13,819 nucleotides of DNA from Candidatus Cryosericum sp. (lineage in GTDB: Bacteria; Caldisericota; Caldisericia; Cryosericales; Cryosericaceae): assembly GCA_049699855.1 (NCBI GenBank), contig JBNAWM010000033.1, positions 1 through 13,819 of the forward strand, given 5' to 3'. The notes beneath the pieces are model-generated. The model did not search any database and was not told the origin of the DNA. It saw nothing but the letters and a program-made list of their open reading frames with translations. This document shows, in pieces, positions 1 through 8,120 of the stretch (within the stretch, counting starts at the first letter, position 1; the number at the start of each line of letters is the position of its first letter). The translations under genes were made by a program, and so were the position numbers.

Positions 1-2
1 GG

Positions 3-1370
3 CGGAGTTTCACCACCGACAACCCCTTCGTGCCTGCCGGCCGCGAAGAAATCTTTGCCCGGGGCATGGACGCCGGCATGAACGGCGACTTCCTTGTCGC
101 GGTGTCCTTACTGACACCCCAGGTCGAGAATGCCGTGCGCATCGTTCTCAAGAAAGCCGGCGTGGTCACCAGCAAGATCGACATGCGCAACGTCGAGCAG
201 GAGCGTGTTCTGGGTGCCCTTCTGGATATGGACGAGGCAGAACGCGTCTTTGGGCGCGACCTTATGTTCGACCTCAGGGGCCTGCTTGTCGAGAAGTTTG
301 GCTCCAACATGCGCAATGAACTGGCGCACGGCCTTCTTGACCTTGATGACTTCAAGGGCCCCGATGCCGAGTACTTGTGGTGGTGCGCTCTGCGTCTGAT
401 GTTCCTGCCATCGCTCCAAGGCGTGAAGACAGACCTTTCGCGCCTGCGCCCCGGCACGCCAGCGCGCCAGCAGCCCGATGTGATCGACGCGCACGGACGT
501 GTGCACCATCAGGAAAACGGCCTTGCCGAACCCGCCGTGGCTGCAGCCGCTGCTGCGGCGCCCGTTGCTGTTGCTGCTGTGACTTCAGCACCCGCCGCAT
601 CGACCACCGCGCCCCAGCGACCAACCGACCGCACCAGAGGGCGTGGCCGCTTTGACCGCCGCGACCGCACGCAGAGACCGGCGGCAGTACCCACCACCAC
701 GCCTTCTGCCATCCCGACCCCGGCGGCAACTCCTGCGGCAGTCACGACGCCGGCACCGGCACCCGCCGTTCAGCCAGCAGCCACAGCCCAGCCTCAGCAG
801 CCCACGGTGCGCGCCAGCGCTCCCGCGGCCACCTCGGCTGTCACCGCTGCTCCCGCGCCAAAGCCGGTCACACCTGCACGACCAGCGGTTGACTTCCGTG
901 CCGAAGTCCGTGCAGCGATGGCAGCAGCAGGTCTGCTCAACTCACCTGATGCAAAACCACAGCAGACGGCAGCTGTTGTTCACCCAACCGAAACAGTGCC
1001 TGTCAAGGCAGCTGCTCCGACCACACAGGCACACAGACATGCCAGCAAGCCATCGCGTCCTGCTGCCTCACAGGCGAAGCCCGTCCAAGTGACGGCTGCG
1101 AAACCGGCACCGGCCAGTGTTCCAGCAGTGAGTACACAACGTCCTGAGAAACAGCAGGCATCAAAGGGATCGCCACAGAACCAGCCCAAAGCTGCTCAGA
1201 AGAAAGCCGAGACAGCAGGCAAGACACCTGCCGTGAAGACAGGCAGCGAAGCTCTGAAAGCCACTGCCCCCACGGCTGCTGCCCCCAAGGCAAAAACCCA
1301 GGCAAGACCCCAGGCAAGACCCCAGCGCAGCCAGAAGACTCCGAAATTAGGAACAGGCACCACCAAGTAA
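3..1370 (+). CDS. DUF4209-like (HEPN-family) protein with long low-complexity C-terminal tail; 5' end lies outside the window
   Basis: Frame is open from base 3 ([21 protein letters not shown]...), so the GTG at 30 is probably internal. Motifs NPFVPxGRExIFxRG, LLxPQxEN and [11 protein letters not shown] (RxxxxH at 312-329) recall DUF4209/HEPN. After ~nt 430 the sequence is A/P/T/Q/K-rich. Ends in TAA. Confidence 0.75.
1297..1325 (+). repeat. 12-bp in-frame tandem repeat (cccaggcaagac x2 plus partial), encoding QARPQARPQ
   Basis: cccaggcaagac at 1297-1308 and 1309-1320, then cccag at 1321-1325. Confidence 0.85.
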
Positions 1371-1391
1371 CCTGCTCCGCTGTTTGTCGTC

Positions 1392-1424
1392 AAAGCCCCG
1401 AAACAGTTGTTTCGGGGCTTTTTT
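1392..1424 (+). terminator. Intrinsic terminator, possibly bidirectional
   Basis: Perfect 14-bp inverted repeat aaagccccgaaaca (1392-1405) / tgtttcggggcttt (1408-1421) running into a T tract, located between convergent genes. Confidence 0.9.
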
Positions 1425-1427
1425 CTT

Positions 1428-1467
1428 CAATTGTGAAGCCAATGGTGCCTGACACCAAGGGCGTCAC
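1428..1467. repeat. Palindromic intergenic element, copy A (diverged)
   Basis: caattgtgaagccaatggtgcctgacaccaagggcgtcac matches 31/40 positions of copy C (5433-5472) without gaps; its right end overlaps the phosphomutase stop codon. Confidence 0.7.
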
Positions 1468-3137
1468 TCTATGGCATTCAGGAGTACCGAGAACTCCGTT
1501 TTCACCCGTTCCAGGAGTGCTTTGGCGCCCACACGGGTTTCCATGTTCATAACCATCAAGTAGAATTTCACCTTCGGCTCCGTGCCAGAAGGCCGTGCGT
1601 AGATTGCCAGCCGGTCACCGAATTCCATCTTCAAGACATCCGACGGCGGCAGGTGGTCATGCCCCTTTGCATAGTCGATGACATCTGTCAGCTCGTATCC
1701 TCCCAGCACCTTGACAGGATTCTCGCGCAGGTTCTGCATGATGCTTTGTATTTTGGCGACGCCGGCTTCGCCTTCGAAGACCGGTGAAAGCTGATCTTCA
1801 AGGTAGTAGCCATATTTTTTGTACAGCTCCTCAACCGCATCCACAAGAGTCATGCCTTTCTGTTGGTAGTACGCCGCCATTTCACAGGTCATCATGATGG
1901 GCGTGCCGGAGTCTTTGTCGTAGATGAAGTCCCCCACGTTGTAGCCGTAACTCTCTTCGTAGGCAAAGAAGACGTTCCTTCCCCGGGACCGCAGGTCGTC
2001 GGCTTCGTTGCAGATCCATTTGAAACCCGTCAGAACCTCGCTGACTTCAACGCCATACGACTTCGCTATTTTGGCGAACAGCTTCGAAGAGACGATGGAC
2101 TCGATGGCTGCGGGGTGTTCCGGCATTCCCTTTCTGGAGTACATCTCCAGCATGAAGTGCAAGAGGAGAGCCCCCATCTGGTTTCCATCGATTCTGACGT
2201 AGTCCCCGTCATGCCGCACGAAAACCCCCATGCGGTCCGCATCGGGGTCGGATGCAACGACGATGTCCGAACCAAGTCTCCTGGCATCGGCCAGGGACAG
2301 CTTGAACGCTTCGTCAAACTCGGGATTTGGATAGTTGACCGTCGGGAACGATCCATCGGGAACGCTCTGTTCCTTCTGAGAGGTAAACTCAAAACCGTCC
2401 CGTTCGAGCAGGACAGGCACTGTCTTGACACCCGTACCGTGCAGAGGAGTGTAGACGATCTTCAATGCCTTTGAGTGCACTCCGAACGAGTACGAAAGAG
2501 CCTTGGTGAAATACTCCTGGTCGACTTCGCTGCCAATCATGACAACCAATCCCTTCTGGCGGGCCTCTTCCAGGGGCATGCTTCGTATTTCACCAAAAGA
2601 TGTTATCGCTTCGTACTCCCGCGTGATCCCTTCATCGTGAGGAGGAATGACCTGTGCTCCGTTGGACCAGTAGGCCTTGTAGCCGTTGTATTGCGGGGGA
2701 TTGTGACTTGCTGTGATCATGATGCCGGCCGTTGCCTTGAAATGCCGCACGGCCAGTGAAAGCACCGGAGTTGGCCTGAAATCGTCGAAGAGATATACTT
2801 TTATGCCACTCTGAGCAAGGATTTCGGCAGATTCCAGTGCAAAATCCTTTGAAAAATGCCTCGTATCATATGAAATGGCAACGCTCCCGCCCGACGCAAC
2901 GGTCTTCTTGATGTAATTGGCAAGGGCCTGCGTTGCCCTGCCCACGGTGTAGCGATTCATCCTGTTTGCGCCAAGGCCCATCACGCCGCGCATTCCTGCC
3001 GTACCAAATTCCAGGTCCTTGTAGAAGGCATCCTGCAGTTCCGCTTGATCCGTGTTCCTGAGTGTATCCTTGTCCGTCTGCGAAATCACCGGATCGTTCA
3101 ACCACAGCTCATATCTTGTCATTGCATCTTTATCCAT
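1464..3137 (-). CDS. pgm: Alpha-D-phosphohexomutase (phosphoglucomutase/phosphomannomutase family), ~557 aa
   Basis: FGTAGMRG, catalytic TASHNP, metal-binding DPDADR, sugar-binding YEESYG and RPSGTEPK motifs. Start placed at ATG 3137 because GGGAG lies 6 nt upstream; the ORF-track extension to 3305 reads through intergenic repeat DNA. Confidence 0.93.
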   Translation of the reverse strand: MDKDAMTRYELWLNDPVISQTDKDTLRNTDQAELQDAFYKDLEFGTAGMRGVMGLGANRMNRYTVGRATQALANYIKKTVASGGSVAISYDTRHFSKDFALESAEILAQSGIKVYLFDDFRPTPVLSLAVRHFKATAGIMITASHNPPQYNGYKAYWSNGAQVIPPHDEGITREYEAITSFGEIRSMPLEEARQKGLVVMIGSEVDQEYFTKALSYSFGVHSKALKIVYTPLHGTGVKTVPVLLERDGFEFTSQKEQSVPDGSFPTVNYPNPEFDEAFKLSLADARRLGSDIVVASDPDADRMGVFVRHDGDYVRIDGNQMGALLLHFMLEMYSRKGMPEHPAAIESIVSSKLFAKIAKSYGVEVSEVLTGFKWICNEADDLRSRGRNVFFAYEESYGYNVGDFIYDKDSGTPIMMTCEMAAYYQQKGMTLVDAVEELYKKYGYYLEDQLSPVFEGEAGVAKIQSIMQNLRENPVKVLGGYELTDVIDYAKGHDHLPPSDVLKMEFGDRLAIYARPSGTEPKVKFYLMVMNMETRVGAKALLERVKTEFSVLLNAIE

Positions 3138-3223
3138 AAGCATCTCCCTTCCCCTGACATAGGTACCTCTCCGGTATTGTACAATGAAAGCGCCAAAACA
3201 GTCACAGCTGGGCAACGACATGC

Positions 3224-3277
3224 CAATTGTGAACACCATTGTACCTGGTACAAAGGGATTCACAATTCGCGGGGTGA
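3224..3277. repeat. Palindromic intergenic element, copy B (54-bp direct repeat with copy C)
   Basis: caattgtgaacaccattgtacctggtacaaagggattcacaattcgcggggtga; 52/54 identical to 5433-5486. Confidence 0.95.
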
Positions 3278-3285
3278 CTCCCACG

Positions 3286-3314
3286 TTGACGCGTAAGCAG
3301 GGCAACCATATACT
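3286..3314 (+). promoter_or_regulatory. sigma70-type promoter for the B12-binding protein/DGC unit
   Basis: TTGACG (3286-3291), 17-nt spacer, TATACT (3309-3314); each hexamer 5/6 to consensus. Strong SD GGAGGTGA at 3347-3354 before ATG 3360. Confidence 0.75.
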
Positions 3315-3359
3315 GAATTACAAATTGTGCTGTGCTATCAACTCGCGGAGGTGATTTGC

Positions 3360-4487
3360 ATGCAGATCAATGATCTTGTGACGTCAGCGGAGACGCTTGG
3401 TCCGGTTTCAAAGGAAGCGGCGCTGGCCTACATGCGGTCCCGGGCAGACTTGACCGCACGCGTCAACGCATCCATGGAGGCTTTGCCATCGATCCATGCC
3501 CTGACGGGAGGTAACCCGCTGAGCGTGATGAGAGACAATCACGACAACCACTCTTCGCTGATGAAGACGGTGTTTCTGCTCAACAACTACACGATGCTCG
3601 CCATGGTTCTGCCCTGGGTCTACCGGACGTACACCTCACGGGGCTTTCAGCTGGAGTACTTTCCGACCGTGCTCCATGCATGGCAGTAGGCAGTCCGCGG
3701 CACCCTCGAGGCATCTCAGGCTGAGGAGATCTGCACCGTCTATGACTGGATGATTGCCCAGCATGAGCGTATCGCCGCACTGTCACAAGAAGCGCATCCG
3801 AGCGTGCCATCGTCTACTGAAGAGCCCTGGTCCACCGTCGAACGCCAGTTCCTGGCCGCCCTGGTGACCGGCGACAGCAGCCGCGCCTTGGATATCGCCC
3901 GAAACGCAGTCCATTCGGGAGATGACATCGCCCGCTTCTATCTGGATGTGGTTCAGCCTGCCATGTATGACATCGGGCAGATGTGGGAGCGCAACCAGGT
4001 GTCGGTGGCCATGGAACACTTTGCCACCTCCATTGTGGCTCGCATCATGTCGGCGCTGTACATGCGCGTTCCGGCTCCTGTCCACGAAAAGGGCAGTGCC
4101 CTGGTGACGTCGGCACCCAATGAGTTCCACGAGTTGGGCGCGCGCATGGTCGCCGATCTCCTGGAGCTCGACGGATGGAACGTCACCTTCCTCGGAGCGA
4201 ACACACCAGTCGGCGATCTCATCGCCCTCGCAAAGATCCTGAATCCTCAGATCGTTGCCATCTCTGTCGCCATGCCCTTCAATATCGACGTTGTCCAGCG
4301 CACGGTTGCCAGCATCCGCGCAACACCGGAACTGTCAGGGGTCCGCATCATGGTGGGCGGCATCGCGTTCAGCACGTATCCATCGCTGGTGGACTCAGTT
4401 GGTGCGGACGGTTCCGCCATGGACGGCGCATCTGCTGTCGCGCTTGCCAACAGCTGGTGGGAGGAACGCCGCCGTCTCAACGCATGA
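3360..4487 (+). pseudogene. Helical N-terminal domain + CarH-type cobalamin-binding domain protein (375 codons) interrupted by an in-frame TAG at 3687-3689; pseudogene, recoded gene or sequence error
   Basis: ORFs 3327-3689 and 3750-4487 are in the same frame, separated only by one TAG (HAWQ*AVRGTLEASQAEEICTVYDWMIAQ). C-terminal part has W-x9-EH (3984-4019), EFHELG (4122-4139), LGANTP, VAISVA and MVGG motifs of B12-binding four-helix cap plus Rossmann domains. Confidence 0.75.
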
Positions 4488-5416
4488 ACGACTCACTTCT
4501 GCTCCGCTACAAGGACGCTCTCCTGGAGGCAGTGGTGGCAGCGCCCTCTGTCATCATTGCGCTCTTCGATGGCGAGTGGAAGGTTCTTGACTGCAATGAG
4601 GGAGCACAGCGAACCTGCGGGGGTATCCCGACCGGCCACTCGCTGCTCGAGTACGTTCTTGATGTCACGCAGCTTCCTGCCTTGCCCGAGCCCAATTCAT
4701 CCACGCCAGTCACACTCATCCTCCGTACGTCAAGCGGGGACATGGCAGCGGTGGCCGGCACCGTGAGCGCCCTTGACGGCACATATCTCCTTGTTGGGAT
4801 TCCTTCCACCGTGGGCACCGATGACATGATCCTTCAGATGTCTCGCCTGACTGATCAACTGACCGATGTGACACGCGAGGTCCGCAGGCGCAACAGTGAA
4901 TTGGAGCAAGCCAACAAGACGATCACGGCGCTCATGAATACCGACGTGTTGACCGACCTTCCCAATCGGCGCTCGTTTCTTGCGGCAATGCCAGCGGCGC
5001 TGTCCTTCTCCAGACGCACCGGCCAGCCGCTCAGTCTGCTCATGGCGGACCTCGACAACTTCAAGCACGTGAACGACACGTTTGGCCACGACGAGGGTGA
5101 TGTCGTCCTCAAGACGTTCGCGGCCGTACTGCGTTCTTCCTGCCGCCTTGAGGACACACCTTGCCGCTTTGGCGGCGAAGAGTTCCTCCTGCTGCTTCCA
5201 AACACAGATCTGACGGGCGCTGTCGTCGTCGCTGAACGCCTCCGCACCCGGACAATCGAGTCGGTTCGTTTGCCCGACGGTTCCGCTGTGTCGGCCAGCT
5301 TCGGTGCCACGCTTTTTCACGAAGATGATACGCAGGATACCTTCCTGAAGCGCGTCGACGATGCACTCTACGAGGCCAAGAACACGGGGCGCAATCGCAC
5401 AGTTGCAGTGCCATAA
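4484..5416 (+). CDS. Diguanylate cyclase (PAS-like region, coiled coil, GGDEF), ~310 aa
   Basis: DVLTDLPNRR, DLDNFKHVNDTFGHDEGD, RLED I-site (RxxD), RFGGEEF active site, DDALYEAKNTGRN. ATG 4484 overlaps the upstream TGA (ATGA). Confidence 0.93.
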   Translation: MNDSLLLRYKDALLEAVVAAPSVIIALFDGEWKVLDCNEGAQRTCGGIPTGHSLLEYVLDVTQLPALPEPNSSTPVTLILRTSSGDMAAVAGTVSALDGTYLLVGIPSTVGTDDMILQMSRLTDQLTDVTREVRRRNSELEQANKTITALMNTDVLTDLPNRRSFLAAMPAALSFSRRTGQPLSLLMADLDNFKHVNDTFGHDEGDVVLKTFAAVLRSSCRLEDTPCRFGGEEFLLLLPNTDLTGAVVVAERLRTRTIESVRLPDGSAVSASFGATLFHEDDTQDTFLKRVDDALYEAKNTGRNRTVAVP

Positions 5417-5432
5417 CCAGAGCATCCTGCAA

Positions 5433-5486
5433 CAATTGTGAAGACCATTGTACCTGGTACAAAGGGATTCACAATTGGCGGGGTGA
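5433..5486. repeat. Palindromic intergenic element, copy C
   Basis: caattgtgaagaccattgtacctggtacaaagggattcacaattggcggggtga; 5433-5477 is a 45-nt imperfect palindrome with 10-bp perfect outer arms caattgtgaa/ttcacaattg and inner arms ttgtacc/ggtacaa. Confidence 0.95.
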
Positions 5487-5510
5487 GGGGGAGGGGGCGA
5501 ACGAGGGTAT

Positions 5511-6113
5511 CTAGGAGACGGCGATGGACCAGGCGGCGTAGAGCAGCAAGAGCGCCAGCGTGAGGGTGTAGATGAATTTGACCCTGGGGTTGGCGATGAA
5601 GCGCTGGATGCCGGCGCCCAGCAGAGCCCACATCGATGTCGAGCAGAAGCTGAGCAGGGTGAGCAGGAGCGCAGAAACGAGGATGGCACGCCAGTTCCTG
5701 GCAAGGGGAGCCAGCAGCGTCGCATACATCGTGAGCCCAAAGAGGATGACCTTGACGTTGACGAACTGGAGCACAAGCCCGTCGCGGTACCGGGCTCCGC
5801 CTTGAGCACGCGCATGCGCTCCACGCTTGGGCCTCAGGACGGTGTAGGCAAGCCACAGGAGATAGGCGACACCCAGGATTTTGAGGACGACCGCGATATG
5901 GCCATAGAGCGAGACGAGCAGGTCTGTCAGCAACCCCGACGCAGCCATGATGCAGAAGAACCCGCTGACCACACCGGCGATGAAGCGCAGTGTGCGCGGA
6001 TATCCAAGGCGCATCCCCAGCGAGGAGGAGGTGATGTTGTTGGGCCCGGGCGTGAAGATGGAAACCAGTGCATAGCTGAGCACCGGCAAGACCTCAATGT
6101 CTGTTATGCCCAT
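5511..6113 (-). CDS. LysE/RhtB-family amino acid exporter (EamB-like), ~200 aa
   Basis: FTPGPNN motif near the N-terminus, LKILGVAYLLWLA and GLVLQFVNVK motifs, several hydrophobic helices. Start at ATG 6113 gives a typical family length; exact start uncertain. Confidence 0.88.
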   Translation of the reverse strand: MGITDIEVLPVLSYALVSIFTPGPNNITSSSLGMRLGYPRTLRFIAGVVSGFFCIMAASGLLTDLLVSLYGHIAVVLKILGVAYLLWLAYTVLRPKRGAHARAQGGARYRDGLVLQFVNVKVILFGLTMYATLLAPLARNWRAILVSALLLTLLSFCSTSMWALLGAGIQRFIANPRVKFIYTLTLALLLLYAAWSIAVS

Positions 6114-6234
6114 GATGCGGCAGCGTCCTCTCTGCCCACGCGCATTCCGTTGATGATGGCACCACCCGCGTTCTCCGGTCTCCTCCCCTGCGTACAGCAT
6201 AGCAGAGAAGTCCAAAACTGCTCGGCCGCGGGGC

Positions 6235-6256
6235 GGGGCGGACATGCAGCCGCCCC
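6235..6256 (-). terminator. GC-rich hairpin downstream of the ABC operon (possible terminator or mRNA-stabilising stem)
   Basis: ggggcgg (6235-6241), 8-nt loop, ccgcccc (6250-6256); no U tract. Confidence 0.35.
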
Positions 6257-6275
6257 GTGTGCATGACCTATCAGA

Positions 6276-8120
6276 CTATGGTTCCATGGCAGCTGCTGCA
6301 GCCGCTGCAGACGTTCCCTTGAACTGGGACATGTACAGGTTGTAATAGAAGCCGTGCTCATCCAGCAGAGATTCGTGCGTTCCGCGCTCGATGATGCGCC
6401 CGCCATCGATGACCAGAACCTGGTCGGCTGTGCGGATGGTGCTGAGGCGATGGGCAATGACGAAGCTGGTTCGCCCCTTCATGAGGTTGAGCAGAGCCTG
6501 CTGAATGTGGATCTCGGTACGCGTATCGACGGACGAGGTGGCCTCGTCGAGGACGAGGATGCGCGGGTCTGCCAGGATGGCACGGGCAATCGTAAGCAAC
6601 TGGCGCTGTCCCTGGCTGAGATCACTGCCGCGCTCGGCAAGAACGGTCTCATACCCATCCGGCAATCGCCGGATGAACTGGTCGGCGTTAGCCAGGGTGG
6701 CGGCGGCGACAATCTCGTCATCGGTCGCATCCAACCGGCCAAACCGCAGGTTCTCCTTGACTGAGGCAGAGAACAGGAAACCATCCTGGAGAACGATGCC
6801 CAACTGGCGCCGCAGGCTGTCCACCTGGACGTCCCTGATGTCTGTGCCGTCGATGAGGATGCGCCCGCTCTGGATGTCGTAGAAACGCGAGAGGATGCTG
6901 ACCATGGTGGTCTTGCCAGCCCCGGTGGGACCCACGAGAGCCATCATCTGGCCAGGAAGGGCGTGCAGGCTGACATCGTGGAGGACGGTCACATCCTTCA
7001 GGTATCCAAAGTCGACATGGTCGAAGACAACATCGCCCTGAATCTGCTGGAGGGGCAGGGCTCCCGGCTTGTCTCGCAGCTCGGGCCTGTGGTTGATGAC
7101 CTCGAAGACGCGCTCAGCACCAGCGAGCGCCGCTTGCACCGTGTTCATAAGGTTTGCCACCTGCAGTAGTGGCTGTGAAAGGCGCTGGGTATAGGTGAGG
7201 AAGGTGGCCACGAGGCCGACGGTGACGATGCCCCTGAGGGCCAGCACGCCTCCCACGCCTGCCACGATGGCCACGTCCATATGATCGAGGAACTGCAGGA
7301 TGGGCATCATGATCATGGCGATGAACTGCGCCCGGCGCCCGGCCTCACGTGCCGCATTGTTGCTGGCGTCGAACACCATGAGCGCCTTTGCCTGCTGTCC
7401 GAATGCCTGGACGACCCGCTGGCCGCCGACCTCCTCGTCCATGACACCGTTGAGGTCTCCGACCGTGCGCTGCTGCTTCAGGAACAGCGGCCGGGTCCAG
7501 ACCATGACTCTGCTCGTGAGATAGAACATCAGCGGCAGCATGACAAACGCCGTCAGCGCAAGCCACCTGCTGAGAATCAGCATCATGATGATCATGCCGA
7601 GGACACTCAGCAGGTTGCTGATCAGTGACGTCAGATCCTGCGAAAGTGACTGGCTGACGGCGTCCATGTCATTGGTCAGGCGGCTCATCAGGTCGCCCTG
7701 CGAATGGCGGTCGAAGTAGCTCATGGAAAGGGTCTGGAGGTGCTCAAACAAGTTCTTGCGCATATCGCGGACGGCACGCTGAGAAACCCCGGCCATGATC
7801 CAGGCTTGTGCCGATCCAGCCAGCCAGCTGCCGACGCCTGCCCAGATCATCCATCCGGCAAGGATCGCGCCCACCCGGATACTGTGGGTTTTGTCGATCG
7901 AATCGATGGCCTTGCCGATCAGCAGGGGCCCGACCAGCGACAGCGCAGCGCCGATGACCAGCAGAACGGCGACGATCGCCAACTGGCCCGTGTATGGCCG
8001 CAGATACTGCATCAGGTGCCGCAGCGTCCCCTTCGCATCCTTGGCTCTTGCTGTAGCGCTGGCCCCTCCCATGGGGCCACCGCCCCGGACAAGCTGTCCT
8101 TCCGTCTTCTTTTCAGCCAT
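6276..8120 (-). CDS. ABC exporter permease/ATPase, TM288-like half of a heterodimer, ~614 aa
   Basis: N-terminal TM domain; Walker A GPTGAGKT, signature LSQGQRQ, Walker B LVLDEATS, switch IAHRLST. Start ATG 8120 has GGAGG upstream and overlaps the preceding gene's end. Confidence 0.93.
   Translation of the reverse strand: MAEKKTEGQLVRGGGPMGGASATARAKDAKGTLRHLMQYLRPYTGQLAIVAVLLVIGAALSLVGPLLIGKAIDSIDKTHSIRVGAILAGWMIWAGVGSWLAGSAQAWIMAGVSQRAVRDMRKNLFEHLQTLSMSYFDRHSQGDLMSRLTNDMDAVSQSLSQDLTSLISNLLSVLGMIIMMLILSRWLALTAFVMLPLMFYLTSRVMVWTRPLFLKQQRTVGDLNGVMDEEVGGQRVVQAFGQQAKALMVFDASNNAAREAGRRAQFIAMIMMPILQFLDHMDVAIVAGVGGVLALRGIVTVGLVATFLTYTQRLSQPLLQVANLMNTVQAALAGAERVFEVINHRPELRDKPGALPLQQIQGDVVFDHVDFGYLKDVTVLHDVSLHALPGQMMALVGPTGAGKTTMVSILSRFYDIQSGRILIDGTDIRDVQVDSLRRQLGIVLQDGFLFSASVKENLRFGRLDATDDEIVAAATLANADQFIRRLPDGYETVLAERGSDLSQGQRQLLTIARAILADPRILVLDEATSSVDTRTEIHIQQALLNLMKGRTSFVIAHRLSTIRTADQVLVIDGGRIIERGTHESLLDEHGFYYNLYMSQFKGTSAAAAAAAMEP

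Follow-up and report, generated by a model that had tools for sequence, protein, structure and literature searches.

The stretch analysed here (the window, 13,819 nucleotides) is contig C33 of a Candidatus Cryosericum genome (hereafter G000; 1.63 Mb in 157 contigs, 97.9% complete) and carries three copies, A, B and C, of a palindromic element of about 45 bp (Table 1). An earlier interpretation made from the letters only (the sequence-only reading) had placed all three at gene boundaries, and they are indeed there and fold as hairpins (folding z-scores of −2.3, −3.1 and −5.0 for A, B and C, respectively). As also described there, the only gene between A and B encodes a phosphomutase, and the only genes between B and C encode a B12-binding protein and a GGDEF-domain diguanylate cyclase; the genes of the two intervals point in opposite directions. 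Copies B and C share 96% identity over 54 nt, and copy A is 75-78% identical to them over 40 nt; the consensus proposed originally fits B and C, whereas A has a different 11-nt core and has lost the right outer arm. The evidence presented below shows that these copies belong to a TIRYT-associated repeat family of the REP/RAYT kind, the cores of which are rewritten in place; the involvement of a Y1 transposase in the rewriting is what we infer from the data.

Table 1. Element copies, genes and other features in the left part of the window
Feature	Position (nt)	Strand	Description
Copy A	1428..1467	+	left arm followed by the G1 core GTGCCTGACAC and the right spacer; has lost the right outer box
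Copy B	3224..3277	+	full 45-bp hairpin (3224-3268) with T core GTACCTGGTAC; 9 nt of right flank common to B and C
Copy C	5433..5486	+	full 45-bp hairpin (5433-5477) with T core; shared 9-nt flank
Terminator-like hairpin	1392..1421	+	belongs to the upstream DUF7380/DUF4209 gene; copy A begins 6 nt after it
DUF7380/DUF4209 gene	3..1370	+	3' part of a conserved gene; anchors the variable slot on the left
Phosphoglucomutase/phosphomannomutase gene	1464..3137	-	module 1; no ortholog in 22 congeners
B12-binding protein gene	3360..4487	+	module 2, gene 1; one 375-codon frame with in-frame TAG at 3687-3689
GGDEF diguanylate cyclase gene	4484..5416	+	module 2, gene 2; no close homolog (E<=1e-40) in 22 congeners
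lysE-type translocator gene	5511..6113	-	right anchor of the variable slot; conserved in the genus

A profile search of G000 identifies 24 copies of the element at E<=7e-5 (the best match in the reversed genome has E 1.1), and a strict full-length pattern yields 21 matches in G000 and none in the reversed genome. The layout consists of an outer box TGTGAA, a spacer of 7-8 nt, an 11-nt core, a second spacer of 7-8 nt and an outer box TTCACA. Four cores, denoted T (GTACCTGGTAC), G2 (GTGCCTGGCAC), G1 (GTGCCTGACAC) and G3 (GTGCCTGACCC), account for 252 of 256 distinct copies. The outer boxes, located 25-27 nt apart, are nearly invariant and do not covary. The spacers covary as a stem (0.64 paired, compared to 0.51 in shuffled arms); with 130 different left spacers among the 256 copies, and 49 copies with perfectly complementary spacers where 4 are expected, the fixed internal mismatches of the sequence-only reading are not a property of the family. 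An exact GGGGWSAS motif is present in 36 of the 256 copies and a match with at most one mismatch in 92; no match is present in the T core of B and C. The tetranucleotide GT[AG]G does not occur within 12 nt of the three window copies, the only ones scanned for it, and an Rfam scan of window positions 1-7000 gave nothing close to a gathering score.

A covariance model (144 candidates scored per genome) detects the family in 20 of 22 congeners, which range from 61 to 97% completeness, and yields a single weak match (E 0.002) in 18 genomes of four other families. A pattern scan recovers the element in at least 140 metagenome stretches, and among the 79 loci listed, 74 include a gene whose identity to a G000 counterpart is 60% or higher; no copy was found in viral contigs or plasmids. 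By the gene calls made in this analysis, the midpoints of 23 of the 24 copies in G000 are intergenic, in a genome of which about 10% is intergenic. By hand count, 11 copies lie between co-oriented, 8 between converging and 5 between diverging genes; converging pairs make up 84 of the 690 junctions overall. Judged by these positions, a role of the copies at transcript ends is plausible. In all five simple truncated copies, including A, the same arm is missing and the truncation comes 4-8 nt beyond the core (P 0.06), which hints weakly at a polar break point. One copy (L305; G000:C50:9776-9826), which is absent in the congener G001, follows a terminator-like hairpin and borders a long intergenic region that contains several words resembling DnaA boxes and is possibly the replication origin.

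The genome of G000 encodes several Y1 transposases (three by Pfam matches, four by protein search), one of which is physically linked to the element. A copy covers the last 17 codons and the stop codon of this gene (G000:C53:5328-5969), which sits between a gene for a metallo-beta-lactamase-fold protein and uvrB, and two more copies, one of them partial, lie upstream. The possibility, raised in the sequence-only reading, of a REP-like family served by a RAYT/IS200-type HUH transposase is thus supported, with the partner gene located on another contig. Orthologs of this gene (69-85% identity) are present in 13 of the 22 congeners (14 loci), single-copy and at a fixed locus; the 3' copy of the element is found at 14 of 14 loci and an inverted 5' copy at all 13 for which upstream DNA is available, at nearly fixed distances. 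None of 16 paralogous Y1 loci has an element copy beside it. G022 has neither the transposase gene upstream of uvrB nor copies of the element; in seven other congeners the start of uvrB was not located.

The partner protein matches PF01797 above the cut-off and NF047646 below it (71 bits; cut-off 80). It contains the motifs NHYH, FQG/D and YLLLNP, and the HUH and catalytic tyrosine motifs (Tyr119 in the protein of 213 amino acids) are invariant among 13 aligned proteins; by the NHYH, FQ and YLLLNP signatures, the gene is assigned to TnpA-Y1 subclass 2.1. The top fold match of a structure model is E. coli TnpA-REP (PDB 4er8, E 3e-9), and a sequence search of solved structures returned no match. 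The orthologs are 208-216 amino acids long, the paralogs extend further, and longer homologs have helix-turn-helix (HTH) Pfam matches; the partner protein appears to lack a C-terminal HTH-like tail, although no search was aimed at an HTH in the tail and the tail of the model is of low confidence. A homolog with 84% identity is annotated as Candidatus Cryosericum. The median dN/dS is 0.10 over 90 pairs: purifying selection maintains the gene, and its ends are intact. Since the 3' copy (L004:1187-1238, G000:C53) encodes the C-terminal residues of the transposase, core changes alter the protein tail (VPDT, VPGT or VPDP, with early stops in G004 and G007). The likely TTG start codon of uvrB lies inside the end of the same copy; in G016 and G022, uvrB starts with ATG. 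Transposases with Asp at residue 100, 13 in number, invariably have a G-type core in the 3' copy, and those with Gly split 22 to 8; this association is only a lead, given that 150 columns were tested, residues 5 and 192 do better, and linkage and ancestry are uncontrolled.

The sites of the element are old, and its cores change in place. Of 80 loci retrieved from relatives, 11 surround lysE and 69 surround copies that were selected among the top matches listed; together they contain 84 copy-bearing junctions. For 34 of these the same gene pair is adjacent in G000, and G000 has a copy in all 34 (five rows at contig C155 with an apparent extra gene, which result from a gene split in G000, are counted as adjacent). 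Cores were compared at 14 orthologous sites, in 121 site-by-genome cells. Copies within a genome share the core in 238 of 415 pairs, where shuffling the cores within sites gives an expectation of 130.5 (P 2e-4); copies at the same site share it in 32% of 514 pairs, compared to 30% of unrelated pairs. Three or more cores occur at 12 of the 14 sites and both orientations at 11. The flanks and the outer two bases of the spacers follow the site (site excess of +0.18 to +0.38, genome excess almost nil), and the central bases follow the genome (genome excess of +0.10 to +0.23), so that the genome-following tract comprises the central 13-17 nt inside a site-specific outer frame. Dispersed copies match a core at the transposase ends of their own genome in 60 of 93 cases, compared to 30.8 expected (P 0.0014). 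Even close relatives on the species tree have differing cores at shared sites (4 of 4 for G011 and G018, 5 of 7 for G001 and G020), which implies that the dominant core has changed several times. In G010 and G012, one outer frame encloses two cores, which has the look of an inserted rather than an exchanged inner unit.

A close strain provides independent support. Run X1, which comes from a separate assembler and represents a strain 7-9% diverged, carries both window modules; at its contig ends, which border these modules, B has a G1 core in flipped orientation, and the core of C is G1 as well. Given these flips and the two orientations seen at 11 sites, the common orientation noted in the sequence-only reading holds for the three window copies, all on the plus strand, but not for the family, and a stable polarity of the element has to be abandoned. 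Assembly collapse is judged an unlikely source of the uniformity of cores because the adjoining bases are site-specific and X1 was assembled independently.

Nearly invariant boxes that do not covary resemble the half-sites of Rex, and the 1.6-Mb G000 contains two Rex-like genes (C105:4468-4611 and C12:3863-4003); together with the age of the sites, which are fixed in relatives as selection on an operator would have it, this raises the question whether the copies are double-stranded binding sites of such a host regulator, with core changes tracking the specificity of the protein. We consider this very improbable: a third of the G000 copies lie between converging genes, a poor position for an operator, the distance between the boxes and the stem-like covariation of the spacers do not fit, and two copies changed at three bases each within the 7-9% divergence that separates X1 from G000.

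The reading that we prefer, with a probability of about 0.6, is that the transposase recognizes the extruded hairpin, nicks the spacers and exchanges the inner stem-loop. Under this scheme, the Y1 enzyme would act on hairpins extruded in single-stranded DNA, cutting within the spacers, and would swap the central 13-17 nt between copies. Such an exchange would explain how old, fixed copies adopt the current core of the genome in either orientation. The scheme is modelled on related enzymes, which nick single-stranded DNA close to REP hairpins and join strands again (PMC8266576, PMC3333891).

Several observations weigh against this scheme. The core at the transposase ends is matched by only 6 of 21 dispersed copies in G000 and by none of 7 in G020, and the permutation P values given above ignore the relatedness among genomes. 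The four cores are connected by single or paired changes, so that hairpin-templated mutation combined with selection could, over long times, explain part of the pattern. In G016, copies are kept with no transposase gene upstream of uvrB. Two G000 copies (C6:26719 and C13:13677), which are neighbours in several relatives and lie on different contigs in G000, share a G000-specific right flank well beyond the hairpin, which looks like ordinary gene conversion running past it. No common cleavage dinucleotide is readable at duplication ends, and the portions of the subclass 2.1 literature consulted contain no biochemical data that we could find.

Part of this evidence would be expected if host recombination and hairpin template switching homogenized, flipped and deleted copies, the transposase having only seeded the family and being kept for another reason. 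The C6/C13 conversion and the copies of G016 fit this explanation, as does the excess of perfectly complementary spacers, which shows that the arms correct each other within a copy; the losses at the uvrA-clpB locus described below require no special enzyme, and the direct repeat at this locus in G004 includes about 50 nt of flank. We nevertheless regard it as unlikely, although by no means negligible. Only the inner 13-17 nt carry the genome signal, and the spacer bases between this tract and the invariant boxes are site-specific, whereas homology-driven conversion begun in the boxes should carry these bases along; furthermore, purifying selection on a transposase gene with intact ends speaks against an explanation by host recombination alone.

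Beyond core exchange, the element is linked to gene loss. At the uvrA-clpB locus, two copies enclose a GGDEF gene in 4 genomes, and 10 others lack this gene; each of the 10 empty loci retains a single site, which is a partial tandem in one case and has a doubled core in two, and in G018 two copies stand 226 bp apart. Because the gene tree follows the species tree, this pattern reflects loss rather than re-insertion, and a re-gain in G004 was rejected on the same grounds; on our reading of the trees, the module seems to have been lost three to five times. Locus L354 is likewise the one-copy empty form of the three-copy locus L344. Among further loci, L379 is identical to G015 and hence not independent, the empty C155 site of G001 contains Ns and was not used, and L373 was rejected as a precise one-copy empty site because its left flank shows a deletion that starts outside the element. 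With regard to an origin as IS ends or MITEs, empty sites show deletions or replacements of varying length and no constant target duplication, and the cognate transposase gene is single-copy.

Copies are also duplicated locally. B and C are the second most similar among 276 copy pairs and have 9 nt of flank in common, a pair of copies on contig C70 shares 30 nt including a rare spacer, and 8 of 21 copies have another within 4 kb, compared to about 1.6 expected (22 random junctions); together, these observations point to local copying. The C70 pair brackets, in direct orientation, a two-gene module of low GC content (0.51) that includes a family 2 glycosyltransferase (L300:1512-3553). On the preferred reading, the same nick-and-rejoin activity would occasionally copy the element along with a few flanking bases to a nearby junction, as in B and C, and two direct copies would then allow ordinary recombination to delete the intervening DNA.

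None of the three genes between the window copies has an ortholog in the 22 congeners, and the nearest listed relatives of the phosphomutase are found in unrelated anaerobes (71% identity in Thermoanaerobacteraceae, 68% in Mesoaciditoga). The slot between the DUF4209 and lysE genes varies in gene content across the genus, also where there are no copies. Among nine relatives in which the whole slot is visible, five have no copy, three have one and G005 has two; a copy next to the lysE stop codon, like copy C, is found in G005, G011 and G018. The similar hairpins behind the DUF7380/DUF4209 gene of relatives are in some cases followed by a copy and in others not. In G005 and G011 (L099:4270-4321 and L108:290-341), a copy takes the place of about nine codons at the 3' end of a 4Fe-4S protein gene and supplies the stop codon. 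Run X7, which has no coverage of the B-C module, was not used as evidence because no contig joins across.

These features bear on the suggestion of the sequence-only reading that the copies are recombination sites of a gene-cassette system. In its strongest form, the hairpins would serve the transposase as attachment points at which foreign genes are captured and modules are excised and put back, in an HUH-driven analogue of an integron with many sites. The foreign look of the phosphomutase gene, whose stop codon (1464-1466) occupies the place of the lost right outer box of copy A, the absence of the window modules from the congeners, the one-copy empty forms at the uvrA-clpB locus and L354, the loss of the same arm in truncated copies, and the proposal, in the portion of PMC3333891 consulted, that TnpA-REP could sequester flanking genes would all agree with it. 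Yet the slot is copy-free in five of nine relatives and varies without copies, the two copies of G005 surround a 4Fe-4S gene native to the slot, the element flips, the genes enclosed by the window copies point in opposite directions, only loss is seen at the uvrA-clpB locus, and no copy was found in viral contigs, plasmids or 80 foreign phosphomutase loci. Among the families searched, G000 encodes no serine resolvase, no IS110 transposase and no IntI integron integrase; the only tyrosine recombinase found is Xer-like (61 bits to TIGR02249; cut-off 265), and the respective contig carries no copy. Nor are synteny breakpoints significantly enriched at copies: with 772 kb of unselected DNA from two relatives for comparison and copy junctions tallied by hand, junctions with copies are broken in 3 of 10 cases versus 19 of 233 (P 0.05) or 63 of 277 (P 0.7) others, and in 3 of 12 versus 25 of 140 (P 0.46). 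Hence a cassette system of this kind is quite improbable: modules are lost through paired copies, and capture or re-insertion at copies goes beyond the evidence. The suggestion is thus supported only in part. On the reading that we prefer, the genes of the window modules would have been gained horizontally, in a slot that varied already, and elements copied locally would bracket them; they would not be cassettes that brought their own recombination site.

Some further features of the window deserve mention. The flank shared by B and C (3269-3277 and 5478-5486) continues into a GGGGWSAS match, as it does beside the copies on contigs C6, C13 and C21. Copies with a T core contain, on the minus strand, a sigma-70-like match (9 of 12 positions; 3238-3265 and 5447-5474 in the window), which is a consensus match only; that of copy B is directed toward the phosphomutase start, about 100 nt away. 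The in-frame TAG in the gene for the B12-binding protein is likely a nonsense change or an assembly error because homologs at 71-82% identity lack such an interruption and a search for PylS gave nothing above the cut-off; amber read-through was rejected for the same reasons. The DUF7380/DUF4209 protein (window 3-1370 together with G000:C34:12420-13778) consists of about 930 amino acids. Across the genus, its N-terminal half shows 93-95% identity; the tail after it is long, rich in Ala, Pro and Thr, and changes fast.

The new findings are the association of a dispersed hairpin family with a gene of subclass 2.1, which was not found in the study of this subclass (PMC6006769, as far as consulted), the mapping of the rewritten tract, with inversion, to the inner 13-17 nt, and the description of such a system in this lineage. 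TIRYT genes with dispersed, self-complementary terminal inverted repeat (TIR) families have been described already (PMC3733652, in part), and for group 3 RAYTs it has been suggested that repeats are overwritten at conserved sites (10.1101/2024.10.14.618302, in part). In the literature covered, there is no description of this repeat or of repeats in Cryosericum, although related TIR sequences could be present in figure 9 of PMC3733652 or in the supplements of that paper and of PMC6006769. The results bear on the cellular role of RAYT-type enzymes, given that subclass 2.1 is the largest subclass of class 2 and was reported to have no REP-like partner. The system is completely readable, with one gene, about 24 sites and four core alleles, and the mapped tract provides a defined in vitro substrate with a predicted product, namely, a swapped or inverted core in an unchanged frame. 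The analysis also tells apart two look-alikes, repeats that bracket accessory genes and true cassette sites. A more far-reaching possibility, which we consider unlikely, is that a domesticated group 1 HUH transposase serves as a genome-wide sequence editor that, by swapping only the inner stem-loop, maintains in 15-25 fixed hairpin platforms the same core as at the ends of its own gene, and that the same activity joins incoming DNA, which would amount to a dispersed, integrase-free system of gene gain and loss.

Among known systems, integron attC arrays share with the present family bulged hairpins of similar size, the bracketing of accessory genes and one-copy empty sites, but differ in that here there is no IntI-type integrase, polarity is unstable, cargo lies in both orientations and the sites are many and old; in agreement with the sequence-only reading, attC R boxes are lacking at the three window copies. 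Like REP and REPIN elements, the family is intergenic, dispersed and lineage-specific. E. coli REPtrons and BIMEs with TnpA-REP (PMC3333891, PMC8266576, both consulted in part) share the fold, a domesticated single-copy gene, hairpin substrates, local duplication and the proposed capture of flanking genes; unlike the E. coli REPs, the window copies have no GT[AG]G foot, there are no REP doublets, and the copies number about 24 rather than hundreds. According to the same two sources, group 2 and 3 enzymes cleave and transfer strands near REP hairpins. In Pseudomonas chlororaphis, REPINs occupy orthologous intergenic sites and their type changes with the RAYT of the genome, and the authors of REPORTH suggest that RAYTs modify or replace REPINs, a result for group 3 in one species that they call preliminary; REPINs are stated there for RAYT groups 2 and 3 only (10.1101/2024.10.14.618302, in the parts consulted). 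By contrast, the Cryosericum enzyme belongs to group 1, the species compared are about 20-25% apart, and the inner 13-17 nt are exchanged, with inversion, rather than the REPIN type. A diversifying role had been proposed earlier (10.1101/2020.03.09.984088), for which, judging from the portion consulted, the authors later found no strong evidence either way.

TnpA-Y1 subclass 2.1, which corresponds to RAYT group 1, is characterized by NHYH, FQ and Y-x-x-LNP motifs and several divergent paralogs per genome, as is the case here (PMC6006769, PMC5581495, both in part). Quentin et al., who tentatively equate this subclass with the TIRYTs of Di Nocera et al., report a C-terminal HTH-like tail and no REP-like sequences beside its genes (PMC6006769, in the portion consulted); the Cryosericum gene differs in being tied to a dispersed hairpin family and in apparently lacking the tail. 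As described in the accessible portion of PMC3733652, a TIRYT or TIRtron consists of a RAYT-like gene with flanking inverted repeats, some of which form moderately abundant dispersed families; the repeats can overlap the gene ends and be self-complementary. This arrangement is matched here; GGGGWSAS, which occurs in some TIRs, is present in only part of the copies. That portion of the description mentions no analysis of orthologous sites, core rewriting, flips or module loss and does not name the Cryosericum lineage, and what sets the Cryosericum system apart from TIRtrons is a short transposase the last residues of which are encoded by the repeat, which also holds the likely start codon of uvrB.

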